Positions 17,592 through 44,858 of a stretch of 64,000 nucleotides of DNA are shown here, one piece after another. Within the stretch, counting starts at the first letter, position 1. Every line of letters begins with the position of its first letter. Source of the DNA: Actinomycetota bacterium (GTDB lineage: Bacteria > Actinomycetota > AC-67); NCBI GenBank assembly GCA_041658565.1, contig JBAZZY010000001.1:279405-343404 (forward strand), given 5' to 3'. The position numbers and the translations under genes were made by a program. The notes under the pieces are model-generated. The model had not been told where the DNA came from, ran no database searches, and saw nothing but the letters and a program-made list of their open reading frames with translations.

Positions 17592-19388
17592 TCACGGCTT
17601 TCGAGACCATCTCAGCCCGAACTCGGCGCCGTCGTGGATTGCGATCGTCGGCGAAATCCCGAGCTTTCCCAGGGCAAACTGCGTGATCTCCCGGAACACC
17701 GGAGCGGCGGTCAACGCCGCGAACCGCGTGCGCGGATTGTCCATGGCTACCAGGACGACGATACGCGGGTCGTCGGCCGGAGCCAGTCCGGCAAACGTCG
17801 TAACGATGTTCCTCGAATAGCCGCGGCGGTCCTTCAACGGCACGCGCGCGGTTCCCGTCTTGCCTCCGACCAGGTACCCGGGGATGCGCGCGCGCGAGCC
17901 GGTCCCGTGCTCGACCACGCCGACGAGCATGCCGCGCACCTGCGCCGCGGTGTATGGCTGCACCACCCGCACGGCCCGAGCCGCCGGCACCGGGGTAACC
18001 GAGCCGTCGCTCTCGACGACGCCACGGACAAGTCGCGGGCGAACCCGGACACCGTCGTTCGCCAGCGTCGCGTACACCGACGCCACCTGCAGCGGCGTCG
18101 CGGCGATCCCCTGCCCGATCGGGATAGTCGCGATGCTCGTTCCCGACCAATCCCCTACCGGGAGCAACACGCCCGAGGATTCCCCTGGGAAGCCTACCTG
18201 CGCCGAGCTGCCCAACCCGAAGCGGGTGAGGGCGTCGTACAGCCGCTTCGGGCCGAGCTTCAGCGCGACCTTGATCGTTCCAACGTTAGACGACTCAGCG
18301 ATGGCTTGTGCGTAGGTGATTCGCTCGACCGGGTGCGAGTGCGAATCGTGGAACACCTGGTTGGCTACGCGAATCGTCGACGGTACGGTCAGTTGGTCCT
18401 CCGGGGTAACAATTCCAGCCTCGATCGCCGCTGCCGCGGTAACAACCTTGTTCACCGATCCCGGCTCGTAGGCGTCGGTGACGGCTCGGTTGCGTCGTTC
18501 GTCCGGAGTCGAATCGGAGAGCCTCTCCGCTTCGAAGGGAGGGTAGTTAGCCATCGCCAGAACGTCACCGCTGCGCGGGTCCATCACGATGGCCACACCG
18601 TTGCGCGCGCCGTTCTCCCGCACACCGCGGGCCAGCGCGTCCTCAGCGAAGAACTGCAAGTCCCGGTCTATGGTGAGCGCCAAGCCCTTCCCGGGAGTCG
18701 AGGTTCGCACCCTGCTGCGACCCTGAGGGATTGGCCGTCCACGGGGGTCTTGCTCGATGATCTCCTGGCCCGGCGTTCCCCCAAGGGTCCGCTCGTACTT
18801 GAACTCAAGCCCCCCGAGCCCCTCGCCGTCCGTACCGACAAACCCGATTAACTGGCTCGCCACAGACCCGGCTGGATACGCCCTCAACGACTCTGGGTGA
18901 GATCCCACGTAGGGCAGGTCCAGGGCCGTCACTTTGTCGACGACCGCCGGTGAGACCCTTCGCGCCAGGTAAGTGAAGTTCACGTCCACGCCCAAGCGCT
19001 GTACCAGATCCGACTCCGCGATCCCGAGGACCGGCGCCAGCAAGCGGGCAGCCACCACGGGATCGGTTATGGCGCGCGGATGCGCATACACGGCGCGCGT
19101 CTCGACGGAGACCGCCAGCGGTGTCATGTTCCGGTCGTAGATCGCGCCCCGACGCGCCGGAAGATCGATCGTGCGAAGCCGCTGCTCCTCCCCGAGCATC
19201 TGCAGGGGTTGCGCCTGCACAACCTGCAACTGCACCAATCTCCCGGCAACCAAGCTGAGCGCAAGGGTCAACATGACGAGCATCGAGACCAACCGCGTTG
19301 TCGAGCGGCTTCCCGCACGACGCGCCCCGTTCCTGCCCCGCCCGCGTCTTACTGCCGCCAACGGAACCCTCCCCCTACCGGCGGTCAC
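17592..19388 (-). CDS. ftsI: penicillin-binding protein, FtsI-type transpeptidase (class B PBP)
   Basis: Arg-rich N-terminus and TM (LVSMLVMLTLALSLVAGRL). Dimerisation and transpeptidase domains with SxxK (..VFEPGSVNKVV..), SxN and KTGT (..GGKTGTAR..). Start uncertain: GTG 19388 overlaps the ftsL 3' end; ATG 19283 is an alternative. Confidence 0.85.
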   Translation of the reverse strand: MTAGRGRVPLAAVRRGRGRNGARRAGSRSTTRLVSMLVMLTLALSLVAGRLVQLQVVQAQPLQMLGEEQRLRTIDLPARRGAIYDRNMTPLAVSVETRAVYAHPRAITDPVVAARLLAPVLGIAESDLVQRLGVDVNFTYLARRVSPAVVDKVTALDLPYVGSHPESLRAYPAGSVASQLIGFVGTDGEGLGGLEFKYERTLGGTPGQEIIEQDPRGRPIPQGRSRVRTSTPGKGLALTIDRDLQFFAEDALARGVRENGARNGVAIVMDPRSGDVLAMANYPPFEAERLSDSTPDERRNRAVTDAYEPGSVNKVVTAAAAIEAGIVTPEDQLTVPSTIRVANQVFHDSHSHPVERITYAQAIAESSNVGTIKVALKLGPKRLYDALTRFGLGSSAQVGFPGESSGVLLPVGDWSGTSIATIPIGQGIAATPLQVASVYATLANDGVRVRPRLVRGVVESDGSVTPVPAARAVRVVQPYTAAQVRGMLVGVVEHGTGSRARIPGYLVGGKTGTARVPLKDRRGYSRNIVTTFAGLAPADDPRIVVLVAMDNPRTRFAALTAAPVFREITQFALGKLGISPTIAIHDGAEFGLRWSRKP

Positions 19389-19776
19389 CGGCGGGACGCC
19401 CGGTCCGCACACCGTTTCGGTCCAGCACCACCACGTCCGTTGCGGGAACCATCCCAAGCTTGCGCGCGCGCGCCGCGACCGTTCCGGGAGCGCCGAGGCG
19501 GGCCACTTCCAGATCAAGTGACTGCATCCGAGCCTGCTTGACCGCCAGTTGGCCGCTCAGCCGCGATTCAGTGATCGAGGCCTGCCCAAGCAGCACCTGG
19601 GCGCTGATCAGGGCAAACAACGAGAGACCGGTAGCCGCGAGGGTCAGGACGACGAACCACGAAGGGGGGCGCCGGCCCGGCACCGGGCGGCCACGCACCA
19701 CTTCGAGGTGACGTGGCCGCTCCGGCGCCGGGACCGGTCGCCTGGGGCTAAGTGCGGACCGCGAAGTAGGAGTCAT
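19375..19776 (-). CDS. ftsL: FtsL-like septum formation initiator (bitopic, coiled coil)
   Basis: 133 aa with a Pro/Arg-rich N-terminus, one TM (WFVVLTLAATGLSLFALISAQVLL) and a coiled-coil segment. ATG overlaps the rsmH stop (ATGA). Canonical position between rsmH and ftsI. Confidence 0.6.
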   Translation of the reverse strand: MTPTSRSALSPRRPVPAPERPRHLEVVRGRPVPGRRPPSWFVVLTLAATGLSLFALISAQVLLGQASITESRLSGQLAVKQARMQSLDLEVARLGAPGTVAARARKLGMVPATDVVVLDRNGVRTGRPAGDRR

Positions 19777-20720
19777 GCAGCACTCCCTCCCCCGAACGGT
19801 CCTGTCGATTCGGGCCGCGCAGCAAGACGCTCTGCAGCGCGCAGGCGTCCCGCAGACGCGCGCGGATTCCGCGCAACCTCTTCGTCCTCGGGACGGACCG
19901 GCTTCTTGGTAAGAATCCGCAGGCGGGGCGACTCGGCGCCGGCCTCGGCTCGCAGAGCCCGCTTCACGATGCGGTCCTCCAGCGAGTGGTAGGACAGTGC
20001 GACGAGACGCCCGCCTGGTGCAAGCACGTCGACCGCCTGCGGCAGGGAAGTCTCGATTGCCTCAAGTTCTCGATTGACGGCGATGCGCAACGCTTGGAAG
20101 GTGCGGCGCGCCGGATGCGGCCCTCCCCGGCGCGCCGCTTGGGGGATGGCTGCCAGAATCGCTTCGACGAGTTGGTCGGTAGTCTCAAGTGGAGCGCGCT
20201 GCCGGGCCGCGACGATGAACTTGGCGATCCGAGCCGCCCAGCGGTCCTCTCCGTAAGTCCAAATGATTCGGCTGATCTCGCGCTCGGAGTACTCGTTCAC
20301 GATCGAGCGAGCGGAAACTTGCTGCGTCGTGTCCATTCGCATGTCAAGCGGCGCATCGTGCTGGTAGGAAAAGCCACGCTCCGGCCGATCGAGGTGCATG
20401 GAGGACACGCCGAAGTCGTAGACCACCGCGTCGGTCCTTCCCCACCCGTTCTGCGCCACCAGCTCCCCCAAGTCCTCGAAGTTCCCGTGTACCAGTCGAA
20501 CCCGATCCCCGAACTCCGCTAAGCGCTCTCCCGCCAAGCGGAGCGCCTCTGGGTCCCTATCGATTCCGAGCAACCGGCCAGCGGGCCCCATGGCCCGGAG
20601 GAGGGCTTCCGCATGCCCGCCTGCGCCCAACGTGCAGTCGACACAGACGCGTTCGCCTGGTTCGGGCACCGCATAGGCCACCGCCTGCGCTTGAAGGACC
20701 GGGACATGGAATTCACGCAC
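19773..20720 (-). CDS. rsmH: 16S rRNA (cytosine1402-N4)-methyltransferase
   Basis: ..HVPVLQAQAV..CVDCTLGAGGHAEALL.. SAM-binding motif and ..VYDFGVSSMHLD... GTG start at 20720. Confidence 0.9.
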   Translation of the reverse strand: MREFHVPVLQAQAVAYAVPEPGERVCVDCTLGAGGHAEALLRAMGPAGRLLGIDRDPEALRLAGERLAEFGDRVRLVHGNFEDLGELVAQNGWGRTDAVVYDFGVSSMHLDRPERGFSYQHDAPLDMRMDTTQQVSARSIVNEYSEREISRIIWTYGEDRWAARIAKFIVAARQRAPLETTDQLVEAILAAIPQAARRGGPHPARRTFQALRIAVNRELEAIETSLPQAVDVLAPGGRLVALSYHSLEDRIVKRALRAEAGAESPRLRILTKKPVRPEDEEVARNPRASAGRLRAAERLAARPESTGPFGGGSAA

Positions 20721-25226: not shown

Positions 25227-28200
25227 TCATGCTCCCGCGGAGCCTCCGCTGGCATGCCAGAGCTTGCGCGGCGCCGTCGCCGCAGGGGAATCGGCAGGGG
25301 TGCGCGCCGGCATCGGAATCGCGCGCGGGGCAGGCGCGCGCGGCACCGGTTCGGGCCTGCGGCCACGCGCGCGCGCGCTTCTGCGCCGCTCGGCATCGGC
25401 CGCCTCGATCTCGGCTACGCCTTCGGTCCACAGCGCTGCAGCGTCGAGCGATCCGTCACGATGCTCGCGCGCGAGCGCGGCTAAATCCCAGGCGCGCTCG
25501 CAGGTGATCGAGACCCCGCGCGCGCCGGTGCGGCGAACCCGTCCGCGCACCACCAACAGCCACGAGTGAAAGATCGTCCACGCGCACTGCTCCTGGACGC
25601 TTTCGAACACCGCCGTGTCGGTCAGTCCGGTGCCGTCGTCCAGGGTGAGAAAGATGATGCGCTGCCCTGAACGGACCGCCGGGGTCTGGGAAGCCACCTT
25701 GACGCCGGCGATCATCACGCGCTCGTCCTGGCGGCAGTCGAGAAGGTCGCGCGCGGCAGTCACCCCGAGGCTCGCGAGCGTCGGACGGTAGAACGAGATC
25801 ACGTGACGGCTTGAGTCCATGCCGGTCACTTCGAGTTCTGCGCGCACCTTTTCGACGTCGGTGTACGGACGCAACCCCCACGAGGTCACCGGCTCCCGCA
25901 AGACAAACTCCTGCTGCGTCGGTTCGGGTCTCGGCCTACTCCCCTCCCACAGCCCCGCCACGTGCAGCAACAGGTCACGGCGTCCACCGAAGGCGTCGAG
26001 CGCGCCGGCGTGGATTAGCGCCTCCACCACGGGTCGCGACACCGATGTCCGCCGGCAAAAGTCGACCACGCCGGTGAACTCTCGCTCGCTGCGCGCTTGC
26101 AGGATCGACGCGATCTCGGCATCGTTGATTCCTTCGACGTGCATCAGACCTATCCGCACTCCCCACGCACTGCCTGCGCGCTCTACCGTGTATTCGCGTG
26201 CGGACGCACCAACGTCCAGAGGCTGGACCTCGACACCGTGGCGGCGCGCGTCGTCCAGGATCACCCTGCGGGGATACATCCCTGGTTCGTGCGTCAGCAC
26301 TCCGACGGTAAACGCCGCCGGATGATGCGCCTTCAACCACGCCGATTGATAGGTCGGCACCGCGAAAGCTGCCGCGTGCGCCTTGCAGAACCCGAATGCG
26401 GCGAACGAAGACACCTGGTGCCACACAGGCTCGATCTCGCCTTCGCGCCATCCGTTGGCGCGCGCGCGCTCGAAGAACCACTCGCGAAGCGCGGGCAGGC
26501 GGTCCTCGCGCGCCAGTTCGCGCCGGACTTGGTCGGCCTTTCCGAGATCCTCTCCGGTCGCCGCTGCGATCGCGCGCATCACCTGCTCGTGGTACACCAC
26601 GACGCCGAAGGTCTCCGCCAAGCACGCGCGCAAGGAGGGATGCGCGTACACCGGACGCGCCCATCCGTGACGGCGCGCGAGATACGGGCCGATCATGTCG
26701 CTTTGCACCGGGCCGGGACGAAACAGCGAGATCTCGACGATCAAGTCTCTCCAACGTTCCGGCTGCAGTTTTCCGAGCAACTCACGCTGGCCCGGCGACT
26801 CGATCTGAAAACAGCCGACCGTGCGCGAAGAACGAATGAGATCGAACGCTTCGGGATCCTCGCGAGGTATCGCATCGAGGTCGACGTCCTCGTCGCTCGT
26901 TCGTTTCACCTCCGCGACCGCCATGGTCATCGAGGACAACATTCGGATGCCGATCACGTCGAGTTTGAGCAACCCGAGCGCTTCGACATCGTCCTTGTCG
27001 AACTGAGACATCCGAAACCCGTTCGCGGAACGCTCCATTGGAGTGCGCGTCAGCAAATCGTCGGGCGCGATAAGGATTCCCGAGGGATGCAGCGCCAAAT
27101 GCCTAGGAAATCCCGCGAGTCGTTCGACCACGTTGAACAACAACTCCATCTGTCCCGCGCGCAGCGACGATCGCTTCAGTTCGGGAAGGCGTTCGAGCGC
27201 AGCATGGATGCCCGAGGCGGAGATGTGCGGGAAGGACTTCGCGATGAGACCGACCTCGCTCTCGGGCAGGCCAAGCGCTTTGCCGACTTCGCGGATCCCG
27301 CCGCGCGCGCGGTAAGTGTCCACCATCGCAACGCACGCGACTCTTTCGGGCCGGAACGTGCGCAGGATGTCGCGGTAGACCTCCTCGCGGCGCGCGCTCT
27401 CTACGTCAAGGTCGATGTCGGGAAGTTCGTTCGAGCGATAGGGATTCATGAATCGCTCGAACACCAAGTTGTGCTCGATCGGATCCACCTCGCTGATCCC
27501 GGTGAGGTAGCAAATCAGGCTGCCTGCGGCCGACCCGCGACATGCGCTGCGAATCCCCATCTGCTTGATGCGGCGCACGATGTCGGCGACGGTGAGGAAG
27601 TACCCGGCGAAGCCCAGGCGCGCGCACATCCGCAACTCGGCATCCAGCGTCGCGCGCAACCGCGGCGACTCGCGCATTCCGCGGCGCGCGATGCCCTCGA
27701 AACAGTTCCTTGCGAGCAGTTCATTCAGCGAACGCTGCGGCAAGCCGCGCGGCATCGGATACGACGGCACCTGCACGCGACCGAGTTCCAGCGTGAAGTC
27801 GCACTCCTCGGCCACGCGCGCGGCTTCGGCGAGCAAGCCGGGCCGGTCGCCGAACAACGCCGCCATCTCTCGCGGGCTCTTCAACGTCGCTTCGTAGTTG
27901 GAGTTGTCGCGATGATGCTCAGAGAGAGGAACGAGTTTGCGCATCGCGTCGAGCACGTCGCCGAGGAACGCGTCGGCCGGAGTGAGAGCGCGCGCGCCCG
28001 TCGTCGCAACCGCGCGCAATCGCAGATCCTCGGCGAAAGCCGCCGCGCGCGCGGCAATCACATCGTCTCCCGGCTCGAGCCGGTTGCGGACTTCCACCAG
28101 CAACCGCCGGAACCCAAAGATCTCGAGCCAGTCGCGCACGCAGTCGCGCGCACCGTCGACGGAACGGCGCGCGATCAGACGCCCGGCGTCACTCTCGGGC

Positions 28201-28598
28201 CCGAGCATGCAGAAGAGCCCGTCGGAGTGCGCGCGCAGATCCTCTACCGTCGCGCACGGATCTGCGCGCTCACCACGATGGTGCGCGGCGGTAAGGATGC
28301 GGCAGAGGTTCTCGTACCCTTTGCGATCGCGTGCGAGCATCGTGACGACGAAGCGATCCTCGCGCGCAACCGCTTCGTCGTGCGCGGTCGTCAGACGCGC
28401 GCCGTAGATCGGTTTGATGTCGTACGCCGCACACGCTTGCGTGAAGCGCACAGCGCCGGCGAGTGAATCGCGATCGGTCAACGCGACCGCATTCATGCCG
28501 AGGTCGCGCGTACGCGCAGCGAGTTCGTCCAAACGAATCGCACCTTCGCGCAGCGAGTACACGGAGCGGACGGAAAGATGAGCAAACGGAGACGTCAC
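25227..28598 (-). CDS. dnaE2: error-prone DNA polymerase III alpha subunit DnaE2
   Basis: 1123 aa. PHP domain N-terminus ..FAHLSVRSVYSLREGAIRLDELAARTRDLGMNAVALTDRDSLAGAVRF resembles DnaE2 rather than DnaE1. GTG start 6 nt after the upstream small ORF. LexA box upstream of the operon. Confidence 0.85.
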   Translation of the reverse strand: MTSPFAHLSVRSVYSLREGAIRLDELAARTRDLGMNAVALTDRDSLAGAVRFTQACAAYDIKPIYGARLTTAHDEAVAREDRFVVTMLARDRKGYENLCRILTAAHHRGERADPCATVEDLRAHSDGLFCMLGPESDAGRLIARRSVDGARDCVRDWLEIFGFRRLLVEVRNRLEPGDDVIAARAAAFAEDLRLRAVATTGARALTPADAFLGDVLDAMRKLVPLSEHHRDNSNYEATLKSPREMAALFGDRPGLLAEAARVAEECDFTLELGRVQVPSYPMPRGLPQRSLNELLARNCFEGIARRGMRESPRLRATLDAELRMCARLGFAGYFLTVADIVRRIKQMGIRSACRGSAAGSLICYLTGISEVDPIEHNLVFERFMNPYRSNELPDIDLDVESARREEVYRDILRTFRPERVACVAMVDTYRARGGIREVGKALGLPESEVGLIAKSFPHISASGIHAALERLPELKRSSLRAGQMELLFNVVERLAGFPRHLALHPSGILIAPDDLLTRTPMERSANGFRMSQFDKDDVEALGLLKLDVIGIRMLSSMTMAVAEVKRTSDEDVDLDAIPREDPEAFDLIRSSRTVGCFQIESPGQRELLGKLQPERWRDLIVEISLFRPGPVQSDMIGPYLARRHGWARPVYAHPSLRACLAETFGVVVYHEQVMRAIAAATGEDLGKADQVRRELAREDRLPALREWFFERARANGWREGEIEPVWHQVSSFAAFGFCKAHAAAFAVPTYQSAWLKAHHPAAFTVGVLTHEPGMYPRRVILDDARRHGVEVQPLDVGASAREYTVERAGSAWGVRIGLMHVEGINDAEIASILQARSEREFTGVVDFCRRTSVSRPVVEALIHAGALDAFGGRRDLLLHVAGLWEGSRPRPEPTQQEFVLREPVTSWGLRPYTDVEKVRAELEVTGMDSSRHVISFYRPTLASLGVTAARDLLDCRQDERVMIAGVKVASQTPAVRSGQRIIFLTLDDGTGLTDTAVFESVQEQCAWTIFHSWLLVVRGRVRRTGARGVSITCERAWDLAALAREHRDGSLDAAALWTEGVAEIEAADAERRRSARARGRRPEPVPRAPAPRAIPMPARTPADSPAATAPRKLWHASGGSAGA

Positions 28599-31687: not shown

Positions 31688-32824
31688 TCACACCACGGCG
31701 AGTGGGGCGCGCATCGAGGCGTCCCAGTCCTTCCATACAACTTCGTATCCCATCGCGCGCAAGGTGGCCGCGACCTCGGCGGCCGAACGAGTGTCGTCGA
31801 CTTCGAACTGTGAACCCGAAGCGTCCGGCGTTGAGTACCCGCCGGGGTCGGTATGCGACCCCGCGCTGGTGTGCGTAATCCCCAGCGGCACCAGATGATC
31901 GCGGAACTCCCCGCCCTCGCGCGTGCTCATCACCAAACCCGCATCCGGCAGCAACAGGCGGAATGCACACAAAGTCTGCGCGAACTCCCGGTCGGTGATC
32001 GGCTCCTTCGGCGAATACTCACTGGAACTGGGACGGATTCGCGGCATGCTGACGGTGAGTTCGGTGCGCCATGCCACCTTGAGCATGTGCAGCGCGTGCG
32101 CGGCGACCGCGACCGCATCCTCGCGCCACGGTTCGTGCAAGCCGAGCAGCGCCCCGATCCCCACGCGGCGCGCGCCCGCGCGCGCCGCGCGCTCGGGAGC
32201 CTCCAACCGCCAGTCGTACTTGCGTTTCTTCCCAAGGACGTGGAACGCGCGGTAGGTCTCGCGGTCGTAGGTCTCCTGGTAGATCACGACACCGTTGCAT
32301 CCGGCGTCCATCAAGCGCGCGTATTGCTCCTCGGACCACACCTGTACCTCAACCGAGATCTGCGGCATGATCTCACGGACGGCAGTGATGTGCTCAACCA
32401 AGAAGTCCACGCCCGTGAACTTCTGGTTCTCTCCCGTGAGCAGCAGAATGTGACGAAACCCCTGGGCGTGAAGGAACTGCGCCTCGGCCGTCGCCTCGGC
32501 GATGCTGAGCGTGCGTCGGGGAACATCCAACGTTCGCGCGAATCCGCAGTACGTGCACGTGGACAAGCACTCGTTCGACAAATACAGCGGCGCATACATG
32601 TGTACGGTCTTTCCGAAGCGCCGCTCGGTCAGGTCATGCGAAGCCCGCGCAATCTCCTCCAGGCGCGCGCCGGCCACCGGCCCTATGAGAGCCGCGAAGT
32701 CCCACAGATCTCGATCGCCGGCCCGCTTTGCGAGCGCACGATCGACGTCCGCATCTCTCGCCGTCATCGCGAACGAAGCCAACTCGGTGATCGGCGTCGC
32801 TTCCAGGACCTCGAGGAAGCTCAC
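31688..32824 (-). CDS. thiH: 2-iminoacetate synthase (tyrosine lyase), radical SAM
   Basis: Radical-SAM CxxxCxxC ..[10 protein letters not shown]... ThiH/biotin-synthase-like length. Lies in the thi operon. Confidence 0.8.
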
Positions 32825-33624
32825 TGCCGCACGCGGTCGAGGAATCCGGTCAGCGGGCTCGATGCCTCCGCCCCCGCGCGCGTCGGTGCAAGACCCGCAA
32901 GATACGCTTCTCGACCGGCGATGACGGCACCGCGGAACGCCTGAGCCATCCCGACGGGATCGCGCGCAACGGCGATCGCCGTGTTCACCAGGACCGCGTC
33001 CACGCCCATCTCCATCGCCTCGGCGGCGTGCGACGGTGCGCCGAGTCCGGCGTCAACGACGACCGGAACACCGGACTGCTCCACGATTATCCGCACGGCG
33101 TCGCGCGACCGCAGCCCCTGGTTCGAACCGATCCACGAGCCGAGCGGCATGACCGTCGCGCAGCCGGCCTCCTCACATCGCTTTGCCAAAACCGGATCCG
33201 CATTGATGTACGGCAGCACCGTGAATCCATCGGCGACCAAACGCTCGGCCGCGCGCAAGGTTTCGATCGGGTCGGGCAGCAGGTAGCGCGGATCGGGAGT
33301 GACCTCCAACTTCACCCACGCCGGCAGCCCCATTGCGCGCGCCAGCTTCGCCAAGCGGACAGCCTCGTCCGCATCGATGGCCCCCGAAGTGTTGGGGAGA
33401 ATCAGGTATCGGTCCTGATCTACGAACTCCAGGATGTCGGGACCGCCGGTTGCGTCCAAGTCCACGCGCCGCAGCGCCACGGTCACCATCTCGGTGCCGG
33501 TTGCGTCCAAGGCGTCCCGCATGATCTCGCCGCCGGAGAACTTCCCCGTTCCGGTAATCAGACGCGACCCGAACTCACGGCCGGCAATCGTCAGCCGATC
33601 CTTCGAGCAGGCACCGTTGCGCAT
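32821..33624 (-). CDS. thiG: thiazole synthase
   Basis: ..LITGTGKF.. and ..LPNTSGA.. ThiG motifs. ATG 33624 is preceded by GGAGGGAG, which is part of the riboswitch 3' end. Confidence 0.85.
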
Positions 33625-33627
33625 TCG

Positions 33628-33715
33628 TTCTCCCTCCGCCGGCATTGTCCGGATCAGGTTCTGTGGGTCGCCGCGGTTCTCAGCGGCCTCTCAGCCCGGT
33701 TCGCCCGAGCTCCCC
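33628..33715 (-). ncRNA. TPP (THI-box) riboswitch controlling thiG-thiH-thiS-thiE(-ogt)
   Basis: Minus strand reads GGGGAGCUCGGGCGAACCGGGCUGAGAGGCCGCUGAGAACCGCGGCGACCCACAGAACCUGAUCCGGACAAUGCCGGCGGAGGGAG. It contains conserved CUGAGA, ACCC and GAACCUGAUCCGGAUAAUGCCGGCG.AGGGA elements. TACAAT -10 at 33732-33727 puts the TSS near the aptamer 5' end. Confidence 0.8.
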
Positions 33716-34700: not shown

Positions 34701-36581
34701 GTGCGCCCCCGTGCGCGTCAACCCTCAAAGCGAGACGTACACTTCCTCTTCGTGGACACAACCTCCGACCGCACGGCAAAGACGGTCGTCGGCGGCCGCT
34801 ACGAGATCAACGGCCTCATCGCATCCGGCGGCATGGGCTCGGTATATCGCGCCCGCGACACGGTGCTCGATCGCGTCGTCGCGCTCAAAGTGCTATCCGC
34901 CGGAGGTGCGGATCCGGACTTCGTAGCGCGCTTCCGAACAGAAGCGACGAACGCCGCCCGCCTGTCGCACCCAAACATCGTGCAGGTTTACGACTTCGGC
35001 TACGAGGACTCGGCCCCGTACATGGCGATGGAATACGTCGATGGACAGACGCTTCGCGGAGTGCTCGCCGAGCGGCGTATCCTGCGCCCAGACCAAGTTG
35101 TTCGCATCGGAGAACAGGTCGCGGCCGCGCTCGAAACCGCCCGTCGCGCCGGAATCGTCCATCGGGACATCAAGCCCGAGAACATCCTCGTGACGACCGA
35201 CGGACACGTGAAGGTTGCGGATTTCGGCCTCTCCAGAGCCTTGGCGGAATCACGCGCCACGCAGGCCGGCATGCTGATCGGCACAGCGCACTATCTCGCC
35301 CCGGAACAAGTCGCCGGGCACGAGTCCGACCACCGGGCGGACATCTACGCGCTGGGCGTTGTGCTGTTCGAAGCGCTCACGGGCCGCACACCCTTCACGG
35401 GAGACTCCCCGGTAGTAGTGGCCTACAAGCGTGTAACCGAGGACGTTCCGAGCGCCATGACGATCAACCCGAGCGTTCCGCCCGAACTGGACGCGGTCGT
35501 CGCGCGGGCAACCGCGCGCGACCCCGCCGAGCGCACGGCAACTGCGGGAATCCTGGCCGCCGAGTTGCATCACGCGGTCCCAACGGTCGGAGGAGACCTC
35601 GGGATCGCAGTCCACCACACCACGGCGATCCCGATCACCGGGCAGGAGACCATCGTCCTTCGCGCTCCGACCACACGCGCGGCGCGCCGGCGGCGCCGGC
35701 GCCTGCCGTTGCGCCTGCTGGCGGCCCTTGCCGTCCTGGTAACGCTCGGCGGCGTACTGACGGTGGCGGGTCCACTTGCATCTGTCACGGTTCCCTCGGT
35801 CACAGGCTCGAATCAACAACAAGCGGCCGCGACCCTGCGCAAGGCCGGACTGCGCAGCGAAGTAACCCTTAGGAACCACGACGCGGTGGAGTCGGGACTG
35901 ATTCTGTCGCAAACGCCCGCACCGGGCGCGCGCGCGCGCCGCGGCGAAACGGTTTCCCTGGTCGTGTCCATCGGACCCAAACTGATCGCCGTTCCCGCCA
36001 TCGTCGGAATGAGCTTCGACAAAGCCGTCACAGCCCTGAGGGATCGCGGCTTTTCTGTATTTCATCGCACCGACATAAACCACGACACCGCCCCGAAGTT
36101 GCAGGTCGTCGGACAGGACCCCGAAGCAGGACAAGAGGTGCGGCGAGAAGCCCCCATCACCCTCTCGGTTTCCCAGGGGCCGCGCATGGTGCGCGTGCCG
36201 AACGTCACCGGGGACCCCGAGGCGAGCGCCCGCGGCGACCTCGACGCCGCCGGCCTGGAAGTGAAGGTGCGACGGGAAGCCGACATGTCGGTTCCCAAAG
36301 GCCGCGTAGTGTCGCAGAATCCCGCGGCCGGTCGCAGTGTTCGAGCGGGAACGACGATAACCATCGTTGTAAGCAGCGGCCCTCCGCTTGTGGCGGTGCC
36401 GAATCTCGAGTGCATGACGCGCAAGCAAGCCGAAGAAGCGCTCGCTACAGCGGGGCTCCGCGCTAAGTTCGGCGGGCGCGGCAAACGCGTCGTCGATCAA
36501 TCACCCGGACCTTCGCAGAAGGCCACGAAGGGCTCCACCGTGACCGTATTGCTGGGCATCGGGTCGTTCTGTACGTCGTAA
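34701..36581 (+). CDS. Ser/Thr protein kinase with C-terminal PASTA repeats (PknB-like)
   Basis: Kinase G-loop ..GLIASGGMGSVYRARD.., catalytic ..HRDIKPENILV.. and DFG, a TM segment (LLAALAVLVTLGGVL), then 3-4 PASTA units (..VPSVTGSNQQQAAATLRKAGL.. , ..VPAIVGMSFDKAVTAL.. , ..VPNVTGDPEASARGDL.. , ..VPNLECMTRKQAEEAL..). GTG start at 34701; the in-frame GTG at 34752 is an alternative. Confidence 0.85.
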   Translation: MRPRARQPSKRDVHFLFVDTTSDRTAKTVVGGRYEINGLIASGGMGSVYRARDTVLDRVVALKVLSAGGADPDFVARFRTEATNAARLSHPNIVQVYDFGYEDSAPYMAMEYVDGQTLRGVLAERRILRPDQVVRIGEQVAAALETARRAGIVHRDIKPENILVTTDGHVKVADFGLSRALAESRATQAGMLIGTAHYLAPEQVAGHESDHRADIYALGVVLFEALTGRTPFTGDSPVVVAYKRVTEDVPSAMTINPSVPPELDAVVARATARDPAERTATAGILAAELHHAVPTVGGDLGIAVHHTTAIPITGQETIVLRAPTTRAARRRRRRLPLRLLAALAVLVTLGGVLTVAGPLASVTVPSVTGSNQQQAAATLRKAGLRSEVTLRNHDAVESGLILSQTPAPGARARRGETVSLVVSIGPKLIAVPAIVGMSFDKAVTALRDRGFSVFHRTDINHDTAPKLQVVGQDPEAGQEVRREAPITLSVSQGPRMVRVPNVTGDPEASARGDLDAAGLEVKVRREADMSVPKGRVVSQNPAAGRSVRAGTTITIVVSSGPPLVAVPNLECMTRKQAEEALATAGLRAKFGGRGKRVVDQSPGPSQKATKGSTVTVLLGIGSFCTS

Positions 36582-36587
36582 AGGCCC

Positions 36588-37466
36588 TTGACTCTCACGA
36601 AGGTACTCGGGCGCCATCGCTGGGAGTTCGCGCTCATCGGCATCAGCGCCGTCTGGGGCTCCACGTTCGTGCTCGTCAAGGACGCCGTCGAGCGGATCCC
36701 GCCGTTTCAGTACCTGGCCTTGCGATTCGCCTGCGCTACCGCGGCGCTGGCGATCTTCGGTGCTTTTCGCGGCCTGCGTCGGACCGAGGCGACTGCCGGT
36801 GTCGCAATCGGGATCGCGCTGTTTGGAGGCTACGCGCTTCAGACGGTCGGACTGCAGTACACGTCGGCATCCAACGCCGGCTTCATCACCGGACTGTTTG
36901 TCGTCATCACGCCACTACTCGGCGCAGTGATTCTGCGACGCTTGCCCTCGAAGGCATCCGCGGCAGGCGTCATTCTTGCGACCGCAGGCTTGGTGCTGCT
37001 TGCAATGCCGTCGGGGATGCGTCTCGGCGGCGGCGACGCGCTCGAAGTGCTGTGCGCGATCTCCTTCGCCGTCCACATCCTTCTCCTGGCACGCTTGGCC
37101 CCCGGACGGTCTGCGCTTCGAATTGCCGGAGTGCAGATCGCAACGACGGCCGCTGCATCCGCGATATGGAGCATCGGCGCGGAGCGCGCGCCCCTTCCCG
37201 GCGCCGACGGTACCGTCTGGTTCGCGATCGCTGCCACAGGCTTGCTCGCAAGCGCGCTCGGATTCGTGGTGCAAACGCGCGCCCAGCAGATCATCCCCCC
37301 GACACGCACGGCGGTGATTCTGACCGCGGAGCCGGTCTTTGCGGGAATCTTCGGATTCCTGATCGCCGGCGATCGCCTCGGAGTGCGCGGGTACGCGGGC
37401 GCCGCGCTCATCGTGCTCGGGATACTGGTCGCGGAGACTCTGGCTCCGCCTACAGAAGAAATCTAG
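36588..37466 (+). CDS. EamA/DMT-family transporter
   Basis: 10-TM profile with duplicated EamA halves (..IGISAVWGSTFVLVK.. , ..LTAEPVFAGIFGFL..). Confidence 0.8.
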   Translation: MTLTKVLGRHRWEFALIGISAVWGSTFVLVKDAVERIPPFQYLALRFACATAALAIFGAFRGLRRTEATAGVAIGIALFGGYALQTVGLQYTSASNAGFITGLFVVITPLLGAVILRRLPSKASAAGVILATAGLVLLAMPSGMRLGGGDALEVLCAISFAVHILLLARLAPGRSALRIAGVQIATTAAASAIWSIGAERAPLPGADGTVWFAIAATGLLASALGFVVQTRAQQIIPPTRTAVILTAEPVFAGIFGFLIAGDRLGVRGYAGAALIVLGILVAETLAPPTEEI

Positions 37467-37547
37467 GGAGTGGCGGCGAATCGACGCGCCGCGCGCTTGG
37501 TTCGCATGCCTGCGAACATCTGATACAGAACCAGTGCGATTCGCATG

Positions 37548-37820
37548 TCAATTGCTCCAGGTCGTGAGCGGACCGGCTTCCCAAGCAAACCCAACCTCGT
37601 AGAGCGCGGCGGCCACGAGCGGTCGCAAGTTGGCCAGCGGTGCTCCGTCTCCGGGGAGCGGGTACTCGCCGGAGTCCTGCACGGTCGTGTACCGCAGCCC
37701 CAGCGTGTCGATGCCGGCATAGGTGCCGGGCGTCGGTGCGTATGCTTTCCCGGTGTAACCGACGCGGCCCCAAAAGGCCTTCTCCCCTAACAGCCGCTCA
37801 CCGAATCTCATCTCACGCAC
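37548..37820 (-). CDS. hypothetical protein (90 aa)
   Basis: ORF with about 80% GC3, consistent with coding. No recognisable domain. Aromatic/Gly-rich. Confidence 0.3.
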   Translation of the reverse strand: MREMRFGERLLGEKAFWGRVGYTGKAYAPTPGTYAGIDTLGLRYTTVQDSGEYPLPGDGAPLANLRPLVAAALYEVGFAWEAGPLTTWSN

Positions 37821-37947
37821 CTCCGTCGCCCCTTACAACGAGTCTCTCGACCTCGGCGACGCGCGTTATGACCTCAGTCAAGGGTCATTTCCGCAGGTAG
37901 TCACACATGACTAGTCATTCGCGCACGCCGGGATGAGGCGGACGAAT

Positions 37948-37976
37948 GTTGACAGCACCTAAACCCGGCCCTACCA
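37948..37976 (+). promoter_or_regulatory. promoter TTGACA-N17-TACCAT driving the aromatic leader and DAHP synthase
   Basis: -35 TTGACA at 37948-37953 and -10 TACCAT at 37971-37976. Predicted TSS about 37983, 5 nt before the leader ATG (near-leaderless). Confidence 0.4.
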
Positions 37977-37987
37977 TCCTCCACGCG

Positions 37988-38047
37988 ATGCGCCGCTATT
38001 TTTGGTTCTATGGCACCTCCGGAACCCCGGGGGCCGGAGCCTGTTGA
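37988..38047 (+). CDS. attenuation leader peptide MRRYFWFYGTSGTPGAGAC (19 aa) with five consecutive aromatic codons
   Basis: Reads ATG CGC CGC TAT TTT TGG TTC TAT GGC ... TGT TGA. Tyr-Phe-Trp-Phe-Tyr at codons 4-8. Sits between the promoter and a terminator hairpin upstream of DAHP synthase. Too short for the ORF track. Confidence 0.5.
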   Translation: MRRYFWFYGTSGTPGAGAC

Positions 38048-38066
38048 GGCGAAGGCCGTAGAACCA

Positions 38067-38100
38067 GCCCCGGGTAGGAAACCCGGGGCGTTTTGCTTGT
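38067..38100 (+). terminator. intrinsic terminator / attenuator hairpin (8-bp GC stem, 7-nt loop, GUUUUGCUUGU tail)
   Basis: GCCCCGGG-uaggaaa-CCCGGGGC followed by a U-tract, 28 nt before the aroG-type gene start. Upstream CCCCGGGGG (38025-38033) can pair alternatively with the 5' arm as an antiterminator. Hairpin 1 spans 38016-38040. Confidence 0.6.
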
Positions 38101-38128
38101 AAGGGCCGGTCGAAATAAGGAGCACCAA

Positions 38129-39178
38129 ATGGTCGTAGTGATGAGTCCGAATGCGAGCGACGAAGATATCGCTCGGGTCGTGGAGATGATCGAGGACGCG
38201 AGCGGAGAAGCATTCGTGTCCCGCGGAAAGCACCGCACGATCATCGGTCTCGTCGGCGACAGCGAGCGCTTCATGGCACTCCCGATCCCTGGGATGCCCG
38301 GCGTAGAAAGCGTCGTCCGCATCGGCAAGCCTTACAAGCTCGTCGCTCGGGAATCGCGTCCCGAGCCCAGCGAGGTGGTAGTCGGGCCGATCACGATCGG
38401 TCGGAACTCATTCGCCGTCATCGCGGGACCGTGCGCGATCGAAACCGAAGACCAAGCCATGTCGGCCGCGCGCGCCGCGAAAGCTGCCGGGGCGCACATT
38501 CTCCGCGGCGACGCGTACAAGCACCGGACTTCGCCCTATGCATTCCAGGGCCTAGCGAAACGCGGGCTCGAGATCCTCGCGCACATGCGCGCGGAGACCG
38601 GAATGCCGGTAGTCACCGAAGTGCTGAACACCGCGGACGTGGAACTTGTCGCGAGCTACGCCGACATCATGCGCGTCGGCGCCCGCAATATGCAGAACTT
38701 CGAGCTACTGAAGGAAGTCGGCAAGATGCACAAGCCCGTGATGCTCAAGCGCGGTCTGGCGTCCACGATCGAAGAGTGGCTGATGGCTGCCGAGTACATC
38801 GCGAACGAGGGCAACGAGGAAATCATCTTGTGCGAACGTGGTATCCGCACCTACGAGCCGATGACGCGCAACACGCTCGACCTGTCTGCGGTTCCGCTCG
38901 TGCACGCGCTCTCGCACCTGCCCGTGATCGTCGACCCTTCGCATTCAACGGGGAAGCGCTCTCTGGTCGCCCCCATGGCGCGCGCCGCGGTGGCCTGCGG
39001 CGCCGACGGGATCATGGTCGACGTGCACCCCAAGCCTGAAACCGCACTCTGCGACGGCCCTCAAGCTCTGACGACCGAAGAGATCGCAGAACTTGTCGCC
39101 GATTTGGTGGGAATCGCCCGCGCCGTCGGGCGGCCGATGGCCAACCCACGCCAGACGCTGACCGCCGCCGGCGAGTAG
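38129..39178 (+). CDS. 3-deoxy-7-phosphoheptulonate (DAHP) synthase, type I-beta with N-terminal regulatory domain
   Basis: AAGGAG RBS 7 nt upstream. KDO8PS/DAHPS-I-beta core ..AGPCAIE.. , ..[17 protein letters not shown].. , ..[12 protein letters not shown].. , ..KRG.. , ..IVDPSHSTG... About 70-aa ferredoxin-like N-terminal extension. Confidence 0.9.
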
Positions 39179-40210
39179 CTAGACCAGATCCCTCCAGGCA
39201 TCGAGCGCGCGCTCGATGCCTGCGGTGTCCACGTCTTTGTGCGTGACGCAACGAATCCGGCGCGCGCCCATCGCCCCGACCAGGATGCCGCGCGCGCGCA
39301 GTTCGTCCGCGACGATCTCCGCGTCGCGCGCGCCGGTATCGACGTAAACGATGTTGGTCTCCACCAACATCGGATCCACCGCACCGGGCCGGATTTCCGC
39401 GAGACCCTCGGCGAGGCGGCGCGCGTTCGCGTGATCGTCGGCGAGGCGATCCACCATCGTGTCCACAGCGACGCGCGCGGCTGCACACAGCACTCCGACC
39501 TGACGCATGCCCCCGCCGAGCATCTTGCGCGTGCGGCGTGCGCGATCCACGACATCGGCCGCACCGAGCACCATCGATCCGACCGGCGCTCCGAGCCCCT
39601 TGGAGAAGCAAAAGGACAACGTATCAACCTCGGCCGCATACACATGGACCGGGACGCCGGAAGCAACGCTCGCGTTGAAGATGCGCGCACCGTCAAGGTG
39701 CACAGACACGCCGCTTTCCCGCGCCAGGCGGGCTGTCGCGCGAAACGCCTCGATAGGCACCACCGCGCCTCCCGAAGCCTGATGCGTGTTCTCCAGACAC
39801 AGCAGCGCAGTGTGCGTGAAGAACCGGCTCGGGGCCCGAATCGCCCCGCGCAACCGCTCCTCGTCGAACACTCCTCGATTCGAAGTCAATGATCGCAGCA
39901 TGACTTGCGAGATCATGGCCGGGGCGCCGACTTCAGCGTCGAGAACGTGCGCCGCCTCGTCGACGATCACTTCATCGCCGGGGCTCGTCAACGCCTTGAC
40001 GCACACCTCGTTGCCCATCGATCCGGATGGAACGAACAGCCCTGCTTCCTTGCCGAACATGCGCGCACAGTGCTCTTGAAGGGCGTTCGCCGTCGGGTCC
40101 TCTCCCCACACGTCGTCGCCGACCTCAGCCTCAGCCATCGCGCGGCGCATCTGGGGAGTGGGCGTCGTGAACGTGTCGCTGCGAAGCTCAACGATGCGGT
40201 CGTTCGTCAT
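39179..40210 (-). CDS. ltaE: low-specificity L-threonine aldolase
   Basis: ..[18 protein letters not shown].. N-terminus and PLP-fold motifs typical of threonine aldolase. Convergent with and adjacent to the DAHP synthase stop. Confidence 0.85.
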
Positions 40211-40252
40211 GGCCGCGAGCCTACCATCGGCGCGAAACCGTGCTCACCCGGG

Positions 40253-40801
40253 TCAGTCGACACGCGAACGTCGTAAGCCCGCGAACCCGGCCGACGCAGC
40301 CGCCAGCAGAGCCACCGCGATCGAGATCGGGCCGGCGCGAGACTCTCCCGCCGGCAGTTCTGTCGCCACAAGTTCGGCTCGCCCAGACCCGTCGAATACC
40401 GCCACCGGACGGAACTTGCCTGCGCGCGCAAGAACGTCGGCGTCGTTGCTGGTCCCGAAGCACAGGCTCGTTGCCAGAGCAGTCCGCTGCAAGCGGGCGA
40501 ACACCGTGTAGCTGTTGCCCGGCAAGAACTCGACTGCGCACCCGCTCCCCTCTACTTCGGCGACCCGAATCGCCTCCGCGACGCGCCCCTTGTACACGCT
40601 CCGCACCGCAAACGTCGCGAGCGAGCGCGTGCCGGAGTCCTCAACCGCCGTCACCGATCCCACAAACACGCTGTCGGCCTCGGCGAACTGCTCGTCGACG
40701 GTGGCTTTGACGCACGTACACGCCCACGACGAAGGCGCGCGCGCAACCGGGGCAATCCATGAGATCGCCACCATGGTAAGAAGAACAAGGGCTCGTCGCA
40801 T
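40253..40801 (-). CDS. secreted TIMP/NTR-like (netrin-like) domain protein with C-terminal hydrophobic anchor
   Basis: Signal peptide [27 protein letters not shown], then mature N-terminal [21 protein letters not shown], paralleling the TIMP C-x-C..AFCNADVVIRAK pattern. C-terminal [22 protein letters not shown]. Confidence 0.5.
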
Positions 40802-44827: not shown

Positions 44828-44858
44828 AAAGAACGCGCCCCAAGTGGGCGCGTTCTTT
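44828..44858 (+). terminator. intrinsic terminator (13-bp stem AAAGAACGCGCCC-caagt-GGGCGCGTTCTTT, then GTTCCGCGTTTATTG)
   Basis: Perfect inverted repeat immediately after the secreted-protein stop. A-tract/T-tract flanks suggest a bidirectional terminator. Confidence 0.6.

Follow-up and report, generated by a model that had tools for sequence, protein, structure and literature searches.

Upstream of a gene for a type I-beta DAHP synthase lie a short leader ORF and a set of candidate RNA hairpins (Table 1). The locus was analysed within a window of 64,000 nucleotides, which is a stretch of a metagenome contig; the source organisms are uncultured. The gene product matches Pfam DAHP_synth_1, the ferredoxin-like domain DAHP_snth_FXD and NCBIfam PRK08673, and can be matched over its full length to Thermotoga maritima 1RZM (E = 4e-111). 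The upstream neighbour gene is divergent, and no plus-strand gene ends just 5' of the leader. This neighbour encodes a 90-aa protein, which was considered as a chorismate mutase-like partner and rejected, as it has no Pfam or NCBIfam match even at E = 5. All 64 of its homologue clusters consist of unnamed or hypothetical proteins only, and AlphaFold models it with low confidence (pLDDT 54).

Table 1. Features of the DAHP synthase leader region (positions in the window)
Feature	Positions	Strand	Basis and remarks
-35 box TTGACA	37949..37954	+	direct reading; invariant in 13/13 aligned sequences
-10 box TACCAT (TANNNT type)	37972..37977	+	17-nt spacer from -35 box; 10 nt 5' of leader ATG
Leader ORF MRRYFWFYGTSGTPGAGAC	37988..38047	+	19 codons and TGA (38045-47); reads ATG CGC CGC TAT TTT TGG TTC TAT ... 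TGT TGA
Regulatory codons Tyr-Phe-Trp-Phe-Tyr (TAT TTT TGG TTC TAT), codons 4-8	37997..38011	+	aromatic-run scan and relatives
P1 5' strand UGGUUCUAUGGC, inside aromatic codons	38003..38014	+	MFE pairing with 38055-66
P2 5' arm CCUCCGG (segment 1)	38016..38022	+	fold and alignment pair counts
Segment 2	38026..38033	+	38027-33 CCGGGGG is the P2 3' arm; 38026-32 CCCGGGG is the antiterminator 5' strand
P3 small hairpin GCCU/GUUG/AGGC, bears leader stop codon	38039..38050	+	fold predictions
P1 3' strand GCCGUAGAACCA, abuts terminator	38055..38066	+	fold, duplex energies
Terminator hairpin GCCCCGGGU/AGGAA/ACCCGGGGC	38067..38089	+	5' arm 38067-75 is segment 3; 3' arm 38081-89 is segment 4
U-rich tail GUUUUGCUUGU	38090..38100	+	direct reading; T-rich in all relatives, sequence differs
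Shine-Dalgarno box AAGGAG of the DAHP synthase gene	38117..38122	+	direct reading
Type I-beta DAHP synthase with N-terminal ferredoxin-like regulatory domain, 349 aa	38129..39178	+	ATG 38129-31; gene call in public assemblies

The promoter TTGACA-N17-TACCAT, proposed in the first-pass annotation, can be read directly from the sequence and is the single sigma-70-like match within positions 36500-40500. Among the aligned relatives the -10 box is TACCAT in 11 of 13 sequences and TACCTT and TACGCT in the remaining two, and its distance to the leader start codon is 9-11 nt. Judging by the position of this box, transcription would start about 5 nt from the leader ATG. The 5' UTR is probably 2-5 nt long, and the mRNA is thus near-leaderless rather than strictly leaderless. 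The leader ORF has no Shine-Dalgarno sequence. Two in-frame upstream starts, ATG at 37946 and TTG in the -35 box, were rejected. The spacer between the -10 box and the ATG varies by +/-1 nt among relatives, and thus the upstream in-frame TTG and ATG codons present in some sequences are not conserved as coding.

Direct reading confirmed the 19-codon ORF with Tyr-Phe-Trp-Phe-Tyr at codons 4-8. Apart from the five-codon run starting at 37997, no stretch of at least four aromatic codons exists in any of the six frames of the window, and dinucleotide shuffles give a chance expectation of 0.015 runs of five or more per window. Aromatic codons account for 5 of 19 positions of the leader, compared to 5.9% of codons in the genes of the window. 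The 5' leader of this biosynthetic gene contains, as is typical of attenuators, a short translatable ORF with clustered codons for amino acids that are end products of the pathway.

The search for a conserved aromatic leader upstream of orthologous DAHP synthase genes, which had been suggested as a test, gave a positive answer in all 13 close genome loci, that is, all related loci having upstream DNA (72-86% identity of the DAHP synthases). The pattern M-x-R-Y-[FY]-W-[FV]-[FY] occurs in each of them at an equal distance from the gene, together with the same promoter, hairpins and terminator. In metagenomes, 23 of 25 exact pattern matches are such leader ORFs; the next gene encodes DAHP synthase in 20 cases, and the contig ends first in the other three. 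The covariance model R1, constructed from 14 close sequences, finds a single copy in the window (114 bits).

The start, frame and stop of the leader are retained in 30 distinct sequences. The start codon is conserved (GTG in L087), indels within the ORF are of 3 and 6 nt and preserve the frame, and the stop codon may be TGA, TAA or TAG, always in the same alignment column. Changes of the regulatory codons are synonymous or aromatic-to-aromatic (codon 5 is TTC, TTT or TAC, codon 8 is TTC, TAC or TAT), with the exception of one valine in L002. The tryptophan of YFWFY is invariant.

Analogous diverged leaders were observed in 10 loci of Nitriliruptorales. Their peptides differ, e.g. MTHATYFWFQGRFF.. 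and MTRAPFTWSSAGYRFF.., and the -10 boxes lie 7 nt before the ATG, so that the transcripts seem to be leaderless there. The model R1 has only weak matches in these loci (E 0.05-0.9), all at the same upstream position. This suggests that the leaders of the close clade and of Nitriliruptorales are related.

The leader RNA folds into a structure more stable than that of 200/200 shuffled sequences (z = -2.85). The predicted terminator hairpin (-19.3 kcal/mol) is situated between the leader ORF and the structural gene and is followed by an imperfect U-tract. The hairpin is present as initially annotated, but its stem has 9 bp (eight G:C pairs and one U:A), not 8 bp of GC only. It is paired in 99.6% of cells over 30 sequences; the apical pair is C:G, U:A or U:G, and one G:C pair is replaced by A:U in L084. 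A stricter scan of the 64 kb for hairpins resembling intrinsic terminators yields few distinct sites, of which this hairpin is one. A simple terminator scan of a 4-kb region showed no enrichment over shuffles (3 found, 2.5 expected).

Two corrections concern the helices upstream of the terminator. Firstly, hairpin 1 in its original form, CUCCGG..CCGGAG (38016-38040), could form here, but it lacks conservation and was rejected as the conserved inner hairpin. The conserved pairing is that of the two P2 arms. It is retained in 94.8% of cells, and its U:G pair becomes U:A or C:G in relatives. Secondly, the 12-bp long-range helix P1, in which the Trp-Phe-Tyr-Gly codons (UGGUUCUAUGGC) pair with GCCGUAGAACCA, had been overlooked. 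An equivalent helix is predicted in 14/14 sequences, although the partner sequences differ. Its duplex energy is better than that of most shuffles in most of the 14 sequences and is no better than shuffles in L003. A hairpin at the position of P3 is predicted in 11/14 sequences, again with differing stems. As the MAFFT alignments shift the 3' strand of P1 by two columns in one subgroup, alignment pair counts for P1 (74%) and P3 (58%) understate the pairing, and these helices were judged by folds of individual sequences and duplex energies.

The palindromic segment 2 had been proposed to pair either within hairpin 1 or with the 5' arm of the terminator (38068-74), and comparison of sequences bears this out, with P2 in place of the original hairpin 1. 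The antiterminator helix 38026-32/38068-74 is paired in 98.1% of cells over 30 sequences, with at most 69.5% in slid controls. Across the structure, two-sided changes were observed at 8 pairs, compared to 3.6 +/- 1.1 in shuffles, and none of 500 shuffles reached 8. In L084 the compensation is three-way: segment 2 is GUCCGGGG, the 5' arm of the terminator is CCCCGGAC, and the 3' arm is again GUCCGGGG. In L037 the same positions contain CUCCGGGGU, ACCCCGGAG and CUCCGGGGU, respectively. The terminator, P2 and antiterminator are almost invariant within the close clade, and thus the covariation comes from a few pairs and these two divergent sequences.

The antiterminator and the terminator are mutually exclusive, and in simulations the former is freed by a ribosome positioned on the regulatory codons. 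When the stall was placed with codon 4, 6 or 8 in the A-site, before synthesis of the terminator 3' arm, the predicted folds of 14/14 sequences had 5-8 of the 8 nt of its 5' arm paired. This agrees with the earlier proposal that a stall on the aromatic codons favours the antiterminator. The predicted energies of the 2:3 duplex range from -17 to -23 kcal/mol across sequences, comparable to those of the terminator hairpins (also -17 to -23). However, even under the ribosome mask the terminator state is favoured (-42.7 vs -29.0 kcal/mol), and hence the model, like that of the classical trp attenuator, requires the outcome to be set by co-transcriptional kinetics. A ribosome stalled at codons 6-8 would, from its estimated footprint, cover the 5' arm of P2. 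By the same footprint estimate, a stall at codons 4-5 would leave P2 unmasked, and thus the five codons need not be equally effective. When a ribosome at the stop codon was simulated with the mask starting at stop-12, the antiterminator was still allowed. A 15-nt 5' footprint would cover 38030-33, so that masking of segment 2 by this ribosome would be a matter of footprint geometry, not of the fold.

It is likely, based on this in silico evidence, that the locus is a ribosome-mediated (leader-peptide) transcription attenuator controlling the monocistronic type I-beta DAHP synthase gene, in agreement, apart from the small helix corrections, with the first-pass annotation. Transcription from the TTGACA/TACCAT promoter would start a few nucleotides 5' of the leader ATG, and the ORF would be translated in the absence of a Shine-Dalgarno box. 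With ample charged Tyr-, Phe- and Trp-tRNAs, translation would proceed to the UGA codon at 38045, where the ribosome would cover the 3' part of segment 2. Alternatively, after ribosome release or without translation, segment 2 would be sequestered by P1 and P2. In either case it would be unavailable, the terminator would form, and the RNA polymerase would stop at the U-rich tail before the gene. If an aromatic aminoacyl-tRNA is scarce, the ribosome would stall on codons 4-8, hiding the 5' strands of P1 and P2. The freed CCCGGGG would then pair with the terminator 5' arm as soon as the latter is made, blocking the terminator and causing read-through. Any or all of the three amino acids may serve as the effective signal.

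One alternative is that translation of the leader acts not by intrinsic termination, but via Rho-dependent polarity, mRNA stability or translation of the DAHP synthase. The imperfect U-tract, which is weaker still in Nitriliruptorales (e.g. UCGCUACGUUCC), would be consistent with that, and some actinobacterial leader peptides have been reported without a clear Rho-independent terminator (PMC8079986). However, all close relatives retain the hairpin and a T-rich tail, the latter with differing sequences. Further, the ribosome-binding site of the gene lies 28 nt past the hairpin and is essentially unpaired: two of six bases of AAGGAG fall in a marginal 2-bp helix of the MFE structure (38119-20 with 38125-26), and the centroid structure leaves the whole box free. 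With 81 nt between the leader stop and the start of the gene, translational coupling is not expected. Thus an output other than termination seems unlikely.

Still less likely is a leader RNA switch recognised by an RNA-binding protein (TRAP-like), uncharged tRNA (T-box-like) or a small ligand, the ORF being incidental. A binding site would be expected to be near-invariant, as P2, the terminator and the antiterminator indeed are, and since the aromatic codons double as one strand of P1, their conservation could partly reflect the RNA level. On the other hand, codons 4-5 are outside P1 and yet remain aromatic, the variation of the ORF is of the coding type (frame-preserving indels, three stop codons, a GTG start), and the Nitriliruptorales versions are enriched in aromatic codons despite quite different sequences. 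No Rfam family, including Trp_leader, Phe_leader, Leu/phe leader and T-box, matched anywhere in the window at gathering scores. With permissive filters, the region 37400-38600 produced three chance-level matches to unrelated sRNAs and snoRNAs (E 1.9-6.7, the best one being to an sRNA).

The peptide itself might be the functional product, either as a micropeptide or as a TnaC-like nascent chain sensing free aromatic amino acids in the ribosome tunnel. Within the close clade, its N-terminal part (M-x-R-Y-F-W-F-[FY]-G) shows strong conservation, but Arg3 and Gly9 are not invariant, the C-terminal half is free to vary where RNA pairing is kept (DDPGDPVAL, GDPRPGADAV), and the Nitriliruptorales peptides have only aromatic richness in common; this possibility is very unlikely. 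Finally, the arrangement might be a coincidence, in which a short ORF happens to lie beside an ordinary terminator or a stable hairpin and regulates nothing. The comparative data effectively refute this reading: although high-GC DNA often contains GC-rich palindromes like CCCCGGGG and the simple scan showed no local enrichment, aromatic runs of this length are hardly expected by chance, the divergent neighbour leaves no plus-strand gene needing a terminator there, and the unit precedes DAHP synthase in 13/13 close genome loci and in 20/20 metagenome copies whose contigs extend far enough downstream.

The proposed ribosome-mediated attenuation follows the logic of the enterobacterial attenuators of trpL-trpEDCBA, pheL-pheA and pheM-pheST, which consist of a short ORF with regulatory codons, alternative helices 1:2, 2:3 and 3:4, and an intrinsic terminator. 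Much as in these systems, about 15 nt separate segment 2 from the last regulatory codon, and here too the terminator is more stable than the antiterminator and the choice would be kinetic. In contrast, there is no sequence or covariance-model similarity to them (Rfam), the mRNA is (nearly) leaderless and has no Shine-Dalgarno box, and two nested protectors, P1 and P2, are predicted in place of one 1:2 helix. The codons are a mixture of Tyr, Phe and Trp rather than those of a single amino acid, and the target is the entry enzyme of the common pathway, not a terminal branch. Leaders whose codons represent more than one end product of a common pathway are known from ilvGMEDA (Leu, Val, Ile) and thr (Thr, Ile). 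The present leader, in which multivalent sensing is presumed, resembles them in this respect, but involves other amino acids and genes and is not homologous.

In actinobacteria, the leader peptides of attenuators are usually leaderless (PMC8079986). Examples are trpL (MFAHSTRNWWWTAHPAAH), leuL and ilvL of Streptomyces and the ilvB leader of C. glutamicum (PMC8079986; PMC4046766). They share with the DAHP synthase leader a short ORF on a leaderless transcript, followed by hairpins and a U-rich stretch, but their targets are trp, leu and ilv genes or aminoacyl-tRNA synthetases. For Streptomyces, no leader peptide of a DAHP synthase was reported, and no RNA elements for phenylalanine and tyrosine genes were found in the Actinobacteria available to Seliverstov et al. 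2005 (PMC1262725).

The closest known system is aroR-aroF of C. glutamicum. As summarised in PMC11802643 (citing Neshat et al. 2014) and PMC4046766, an aromatic leader peptide (Phe-Tyr-Phe) precedes a DAHP synthase gene there, and ribosome stalling under aromatic limitation raises read-through; according to the account in PMC11802643, Phe limitation alone is effective. Both loci thus have an actinobacterial aromatic leader peptide directly 5' of a DAHP synthase gene. They differ in that the leader described here has five consecutive aromatic codons with an invariant Trp (YFWFY), the gene is monocistronic and not in an operon, the enzyme is of type I-beta with a ferredoxin-like domain, and the host belongs to an uncultured clade of Actinomycetota. 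C. glutamicum AroF is, we believe, of another DAHP synthase subclass, and hence an origin independent of aroR, here compared by its description, is likely.

A literature search retrieved no paper on an aromatic leader before type I-beta DAHP synthase. We lean towards considering these leaders an uncatalogued family of tri-aromatic (Tyr/Phe/Trp) attenuators dedicated to this enzyme, independent of aroR and present in two or more deep branches of Actinomycetota (Nitriliruptoria and an uncultured clade from soil). In such a family, the charging of Tyr-, Phe- and Trp-tRNAs would be integrated by a single leaderless micro-ORF at the first step of the shikimate pathway. The mechanism is classical and changes no concept. 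Leader-peptide attenuation of the enzyme at the entry to the shikimate pathway, earlier documented only for aroR-aroF of Corynebacterium, is extended by this locus to Nitriliruptoria and uncultured Actinomycetota, in which the DAHP synthase is of another class. The compact and strongly conserved family of about 30 distinct sequences could be used in RNA-family catalogues and for metagenome annotation, and the mixed Tyr/Phe/Trp block provides a simple test case for multivalent sensing at a common-pathway step. The candidate attenuator would be a second layer of control on an enzyme that already bears an allosteric ferredoxin-like domain.

The gene downstream of the leader encodes a type I-beta DAHP synthase with an N-terminal ferredoxin-like domain (Pfam DAHP_synth_1 and DAHP_snth_FXD, NCBIfam PRK08673). 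Over its full length the protein matches that of Thermotoga maritima (1RZM/3PG9; E = 4e-111). The gene is monocistronic, with a convergent gene for a beta-eliminating lyase adjoining its stop codon. A candidate attenuator with an aromatic leader peptide had been proposed in its upstream region by the first-pass annotation, and every listed element was present on reading positions 37700-38400. TTGACA-N17-TACCAT was the sole sigma-70-like site in the region 36500-40500.

Features of the DAHP synthase leader region (percentages of cells are across 30 sequences)
Feature	Position	Strand	Remark
-35 box TTGACA	37949-54	+	read from sequence
-10 box TACCAT	37972-77	+	17 nt from -35 box
Leader ORF MRRYFWFYGTSGTPGAGAC	ATG 37988, TGA 38045-47	+	read from sequence
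P1, long-range helix	38003-14 (Trp-Phe-Tyr-Gly codons) with 38055-66 (12 nt immediately 5' of terminator)	+	predicted fold
P2	CCUCCGG 38016-22 with CCGGGGG 38027-33	+	94.8% of cells paired
P3, small hairpin carrying the leader stop codon		+	predicted fold
Terminator hairpin GCCCCGGGU-AGGAA-ACCCGGGGC, then GUUUUGCUUGU	hairpin 38067-89	+	read from sequence
Shine-Dalgarno box AAGGAG of DAHP synthase gene	38117-22	+	read from sequence
DAHP synthase ATG	38129	+	349-aa product; read from sequence

Apart from the five-codon aromatic run at 37997, the six frames of the 64 kb contain no run of at least four Phe, Tyr or Trp codons. Dinucleotide-preserving shuffles yielded 0.31 runs of at least four and 0.015 runs of at least five such codons per window. 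Aromatic codons constitute 5.9% in the genes of the window versus 5/19 in the leader. The 149-nt leader folds with -68.3 kcal/mol (z = -2.85), which is better than all 200 shuffled sequences. A simple scan for terminators demonstrated no local enrichment (3 found versus 2.5 expected), and a stricter scripted search of all 64 kb for hairpins resembling terminators gave only a handful of distinct sites, the hairpin at 38067-89 among them. The upstream neighbour of the leader is a small divergent ORF on the minus strand, and thus no plus-strand gene ends just upstream that would need this hairpin as its terminator. Among the few terminator-like hairpins from the script scan, one at 44831-44855 (GAACGCGCCC CAAGT GGGCGCGTTC) is a GC-rich, perfect 10-bp stem with T-rich tails on both strands, probably a bidirectional terminator.

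A scan with one genome per species produced 80 loci with related DAHP synthases. Unclassified MAGs of Actinomycetota account for 14 of them (72-86% identity) and Nitriliruptorales for about 25 (about 61%); the remainder are mostly from Acidimicrobiia (about 56%). The leader unit is retained in 13/13 close loci with upstream DNA, and the initial observation of the unit is confirmed. In these 13 aligned loci the -35 box does not vary, 11 have TACCAT as the -10 box, and the ATG lies 9-11 nt past the -10 box. The leader peptides follow the pattern M-x-R-Y-[FY]-W-[FV]-[FY]-G/D, and all loci have the inner hairpin and the GCCCCGGG...CCCGGGGC hairpin with a T-rich tail. An exact-pattern scan of metagenome contigs gave 25 matches, of which 23 are leader ORFs and two are chance matches inside other reading frames. 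The DAHP synthase gene follows at the usual distance in all 20 metagenome leaders with sufficient downstream DNA. In the window, a covariance model of the unit detects a single copy (114 bits). A MAG labelled 'Acidobacteria bacterium' (locus L006, JACQXY010000043.1) also has this leader (MRDYFWFYGTSGSPEADAR), and its DAHP synthase shares 78% identity with that of the window; probably this is a taxonomic mislabel or a binning error.

Variation of the leader ORF is of the coding type. The indels are of 3 nt (the L009 group of loci) and 6 nt (locus L003). A single alignment column holds the stop codon, as TGA, TAA or TAG, and one copy starts with GTG. The variants are TTC, TTT and TAC at codon 5, and TTC, TAC and TAT at codon 8. 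The peptide varies freely in its C-terminal half (e.g. DDPGDPVAL, GDPRPGADAV) with the pairing nucleotides kept, and therefore the constraint acts on the RNA in that half and on the codons in the aromatic block. Codon 4 (37997-37999) is the rare TAT in 14/14 genome-derived sequences; the genes of the window have 44 TAT versus 187 TAC codons (19% TAT). Slow decoding of this codon may have been selected for, as reported for rare codons in other leaders, or else A/T-richness close to a leaderless start. Upstream of the leader ORF (37946-37987), its frame also contains an ATG at 37946 and the TTG of the -35 box (37949). The same is true of several relatives, since promoter and ATG are 39 nt apart. 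In relatives whose spacer differs by one nucleotide in either direction the frame is lost, and hence this extension is a by-product of promoter geometry rather than coding.

Analogous units were found in 10 loci of Nitriliruptorales (Egicoccus, Nitriliruptor and others). Their candidate leader peptides are unrelated in sequence (MTHATYFWFQGRFFTGPG.., MTRAPFTWSSAGYRFF.., MHIHASTEYWFGF.., ..AWRFF..), and this breadth favours aromatic codons, not a specific arrest peptide, as the basis of sensing. The TANNNT -10 box is situated exactly 7 nt before the ATG, so these transcripts are truly leaderless. Each of the 10 units contains a GCCCCGGGG hairpin, and in most of them an 8-9-nt segment of the ORF is complementary to its 5' arm. 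Comparison of these candidate units shows that the leader arrangement is not confined to one clade. Among the 80 loci, 15 other loci of Nitriliruptoraceae and those of Acidimicrobiia lack the unit. Upstream regions of two kinds precede orthologous DAHP synthase genes in the Nitriliruptorales loci L015-L039, 10 with a leaderless aromatic leader ORF and a GCCCCGGGG hairpin and 15 without; the latter share a promoter-like box GGTG[CG]TAGCCT and a conserved GTGRCGAGAGAGGACACCTCSATG start region. Gain or loss of the attenuator has occurred within one family.

The fold sketched initially departs somewhat from the conserved one. A CUCCGG..CCGGAG hairpin, proposed as the first stem, is possible in the window sequence and is not conserved. 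A helix equivalent to P1 is predicted in 14/14 folded sequences, its 3' strand differing in sequence (AGAACCA, AGAGCCAG, AGGACC) and sometimes in position. In P2, relatives have U:A or C:G in place of the U:G pair. Pairing of the terminator holds in 99.6% of cells, with C:G, U:A or U:G as the apical pair. The proposed alternative pairing of CCCGGGG (38026-32) with the terminator 5' arm (38068-74) holds. Segment 1 is the 5' arm of P2, segment 2 is 38026-33, and segments 3 and 4 are the terminator arms. The antiterminator, segments 2:3, has standard pairs in 98.1% of cells (30 distinct sequences) versus at most 69.5% with the partner slid by 1-3 columns. Segments 2, 3 and 4 are nearly frozen, because segment 3 pairs with both others. 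The two informative sequences are the loci L084 (GUCCGGGG / CCCCGGAC / GUCCGGGG for segment 2, terminator 5' arm and 3' arm) and L037 of Nitriliruptoraceae (CUCCGGGGU / ACCCCGGAG / CUCCGGGGU), in each of which all three partners have changed jointly.

Stalling was simulated by masking the RNA as a ribosome would with its A site at codon 4, 6 or 8, and by folding only RNA made before the appearance of the terminator 3' arm. In 14/14 sequences, the terminator 5' arm had 5-8 of its 8 nt paired. The energy of the 2:3 duplex (-17 to -23 kcal/mol) is comparable to that of the terminator hairpin (-17 to -23) and exceeds that of P2 (-6 to -16). At equilibrium the terminator state is favoured both under the mask (-42.7 versus -29.0 kcal/mol) and without it (-59.1 versus -40.3), and thus the decision must be kinetic, as it is in the trp attenuator. 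A ribosome stalled at codons 6-8 would mask P2 directly, and one at codons 4-5 would mask P1 only. A ribosome at the UGA would, by footprint geometry, cover 38030-57 and prevent the antiterminator, leading to termination. With no ribosome, P1 and P2 would sequester segment 2, again with termination. The ribosome-binding site of the DAHP synthase gene lies 28 nt past the hairpin and is essentially unpaired (two bases in a marginal 2-bp helix of the MFE fold, none in the centroid), which argues for transcriptional rather than translational control. It is quite likely that the unit works as a ribosome-mediated attenuator; the attenuator interpretation of the first-pass annotation is supported in silico with the helices corrected.

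The leader has every feature of the leader-peptide attenuator class that can be tested in silico. It is uncatalogued; the kind of regulator is well known. It has no match in Rfam 15, and a gathering-threshold scan of all 64 kb identified no family (riboswitch, tRNA-like or leader), including upstream of thiG/thiH. Literature search retrieved no description of an aromatic leader family before type I-beta DAHP synthase genes. In an early survey, no RNA elements were found for Phe/Tyr genes of Actinobacteria (PMC1262725). In actinobacterial attenuators, leader peptides are as a rule leaderless (PMC8079986). The closest precedent is aroR of Corynebacterium glutamicum, described as a leader peptide with Phe-Tyr-Phe that precedes the aroF operon, with read-through increased under limitation of Phe and not of Tyr (PMC11802643, citing Neshat et al. 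2014; PMC4046766). Here, unlike aroR, the codon run is longer and has an invariant Trp, the DAHP synthase gene is monocistronic, and the lineage is different. The C. glutamicum AroF presumably belongs to another DAHP synthase subclass, the enzyme considered here being probably of a different one.

The divergent ORF (37548-37820, minus strand, 87-90 aa) has no match in Pfam and NCBIfam even at E = 5. It is conserved (55-73% identity) beside the leader and DAHP synthase gene in 31 related loci. Its family comprises 64 clusters, all unnamed or annotated only as "hypothetical protein"; few have a named source organism, in all cases uncultured Actinomycetota. The C-terminus is invariant (FA.EAGPL.TWSN), and the AlphaFold model is of low confidence (pLDDT 54). 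Three elements stand out in the divergent intergenic region 37833-37918. One is the perfect 12-bp palindrome ATGACTAGTCAT at 37907-18, whose centre lies about 71 nt before the presumed start of aro transcription. Another is the inverted repeat ATGACC-N9-GGTCAT at 37867-87, and the third is the motif TTACAACGAGTCTCTCG (37833-49) recurring near the start of the small ORF in many relatives. In a second subgroup this motif is replaced by GACGTAGTRC..AGGTCCC...CTCAAATGGGTGGTT. For the small ORF or the aro promoter, these elements might act as operators, promoter or 5' UTR element. Further upstream (5000-37500), a cell-division and cell-wall cluster (PBP 17592-19517, mraW 19773-20720) is followed by DnaE (25227-28598), thiH/thiG (31688-33645), a PASTA Ser/Thr kinase (34701-36581) and an EamA transporter (36588-37466), and then by the DAHP synthase gene. 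This gene order resembles the dcw ... pknL ... aroG neighbourhood of mycobacteria; the DAHP synthase of the window, however, is of type I-beta.
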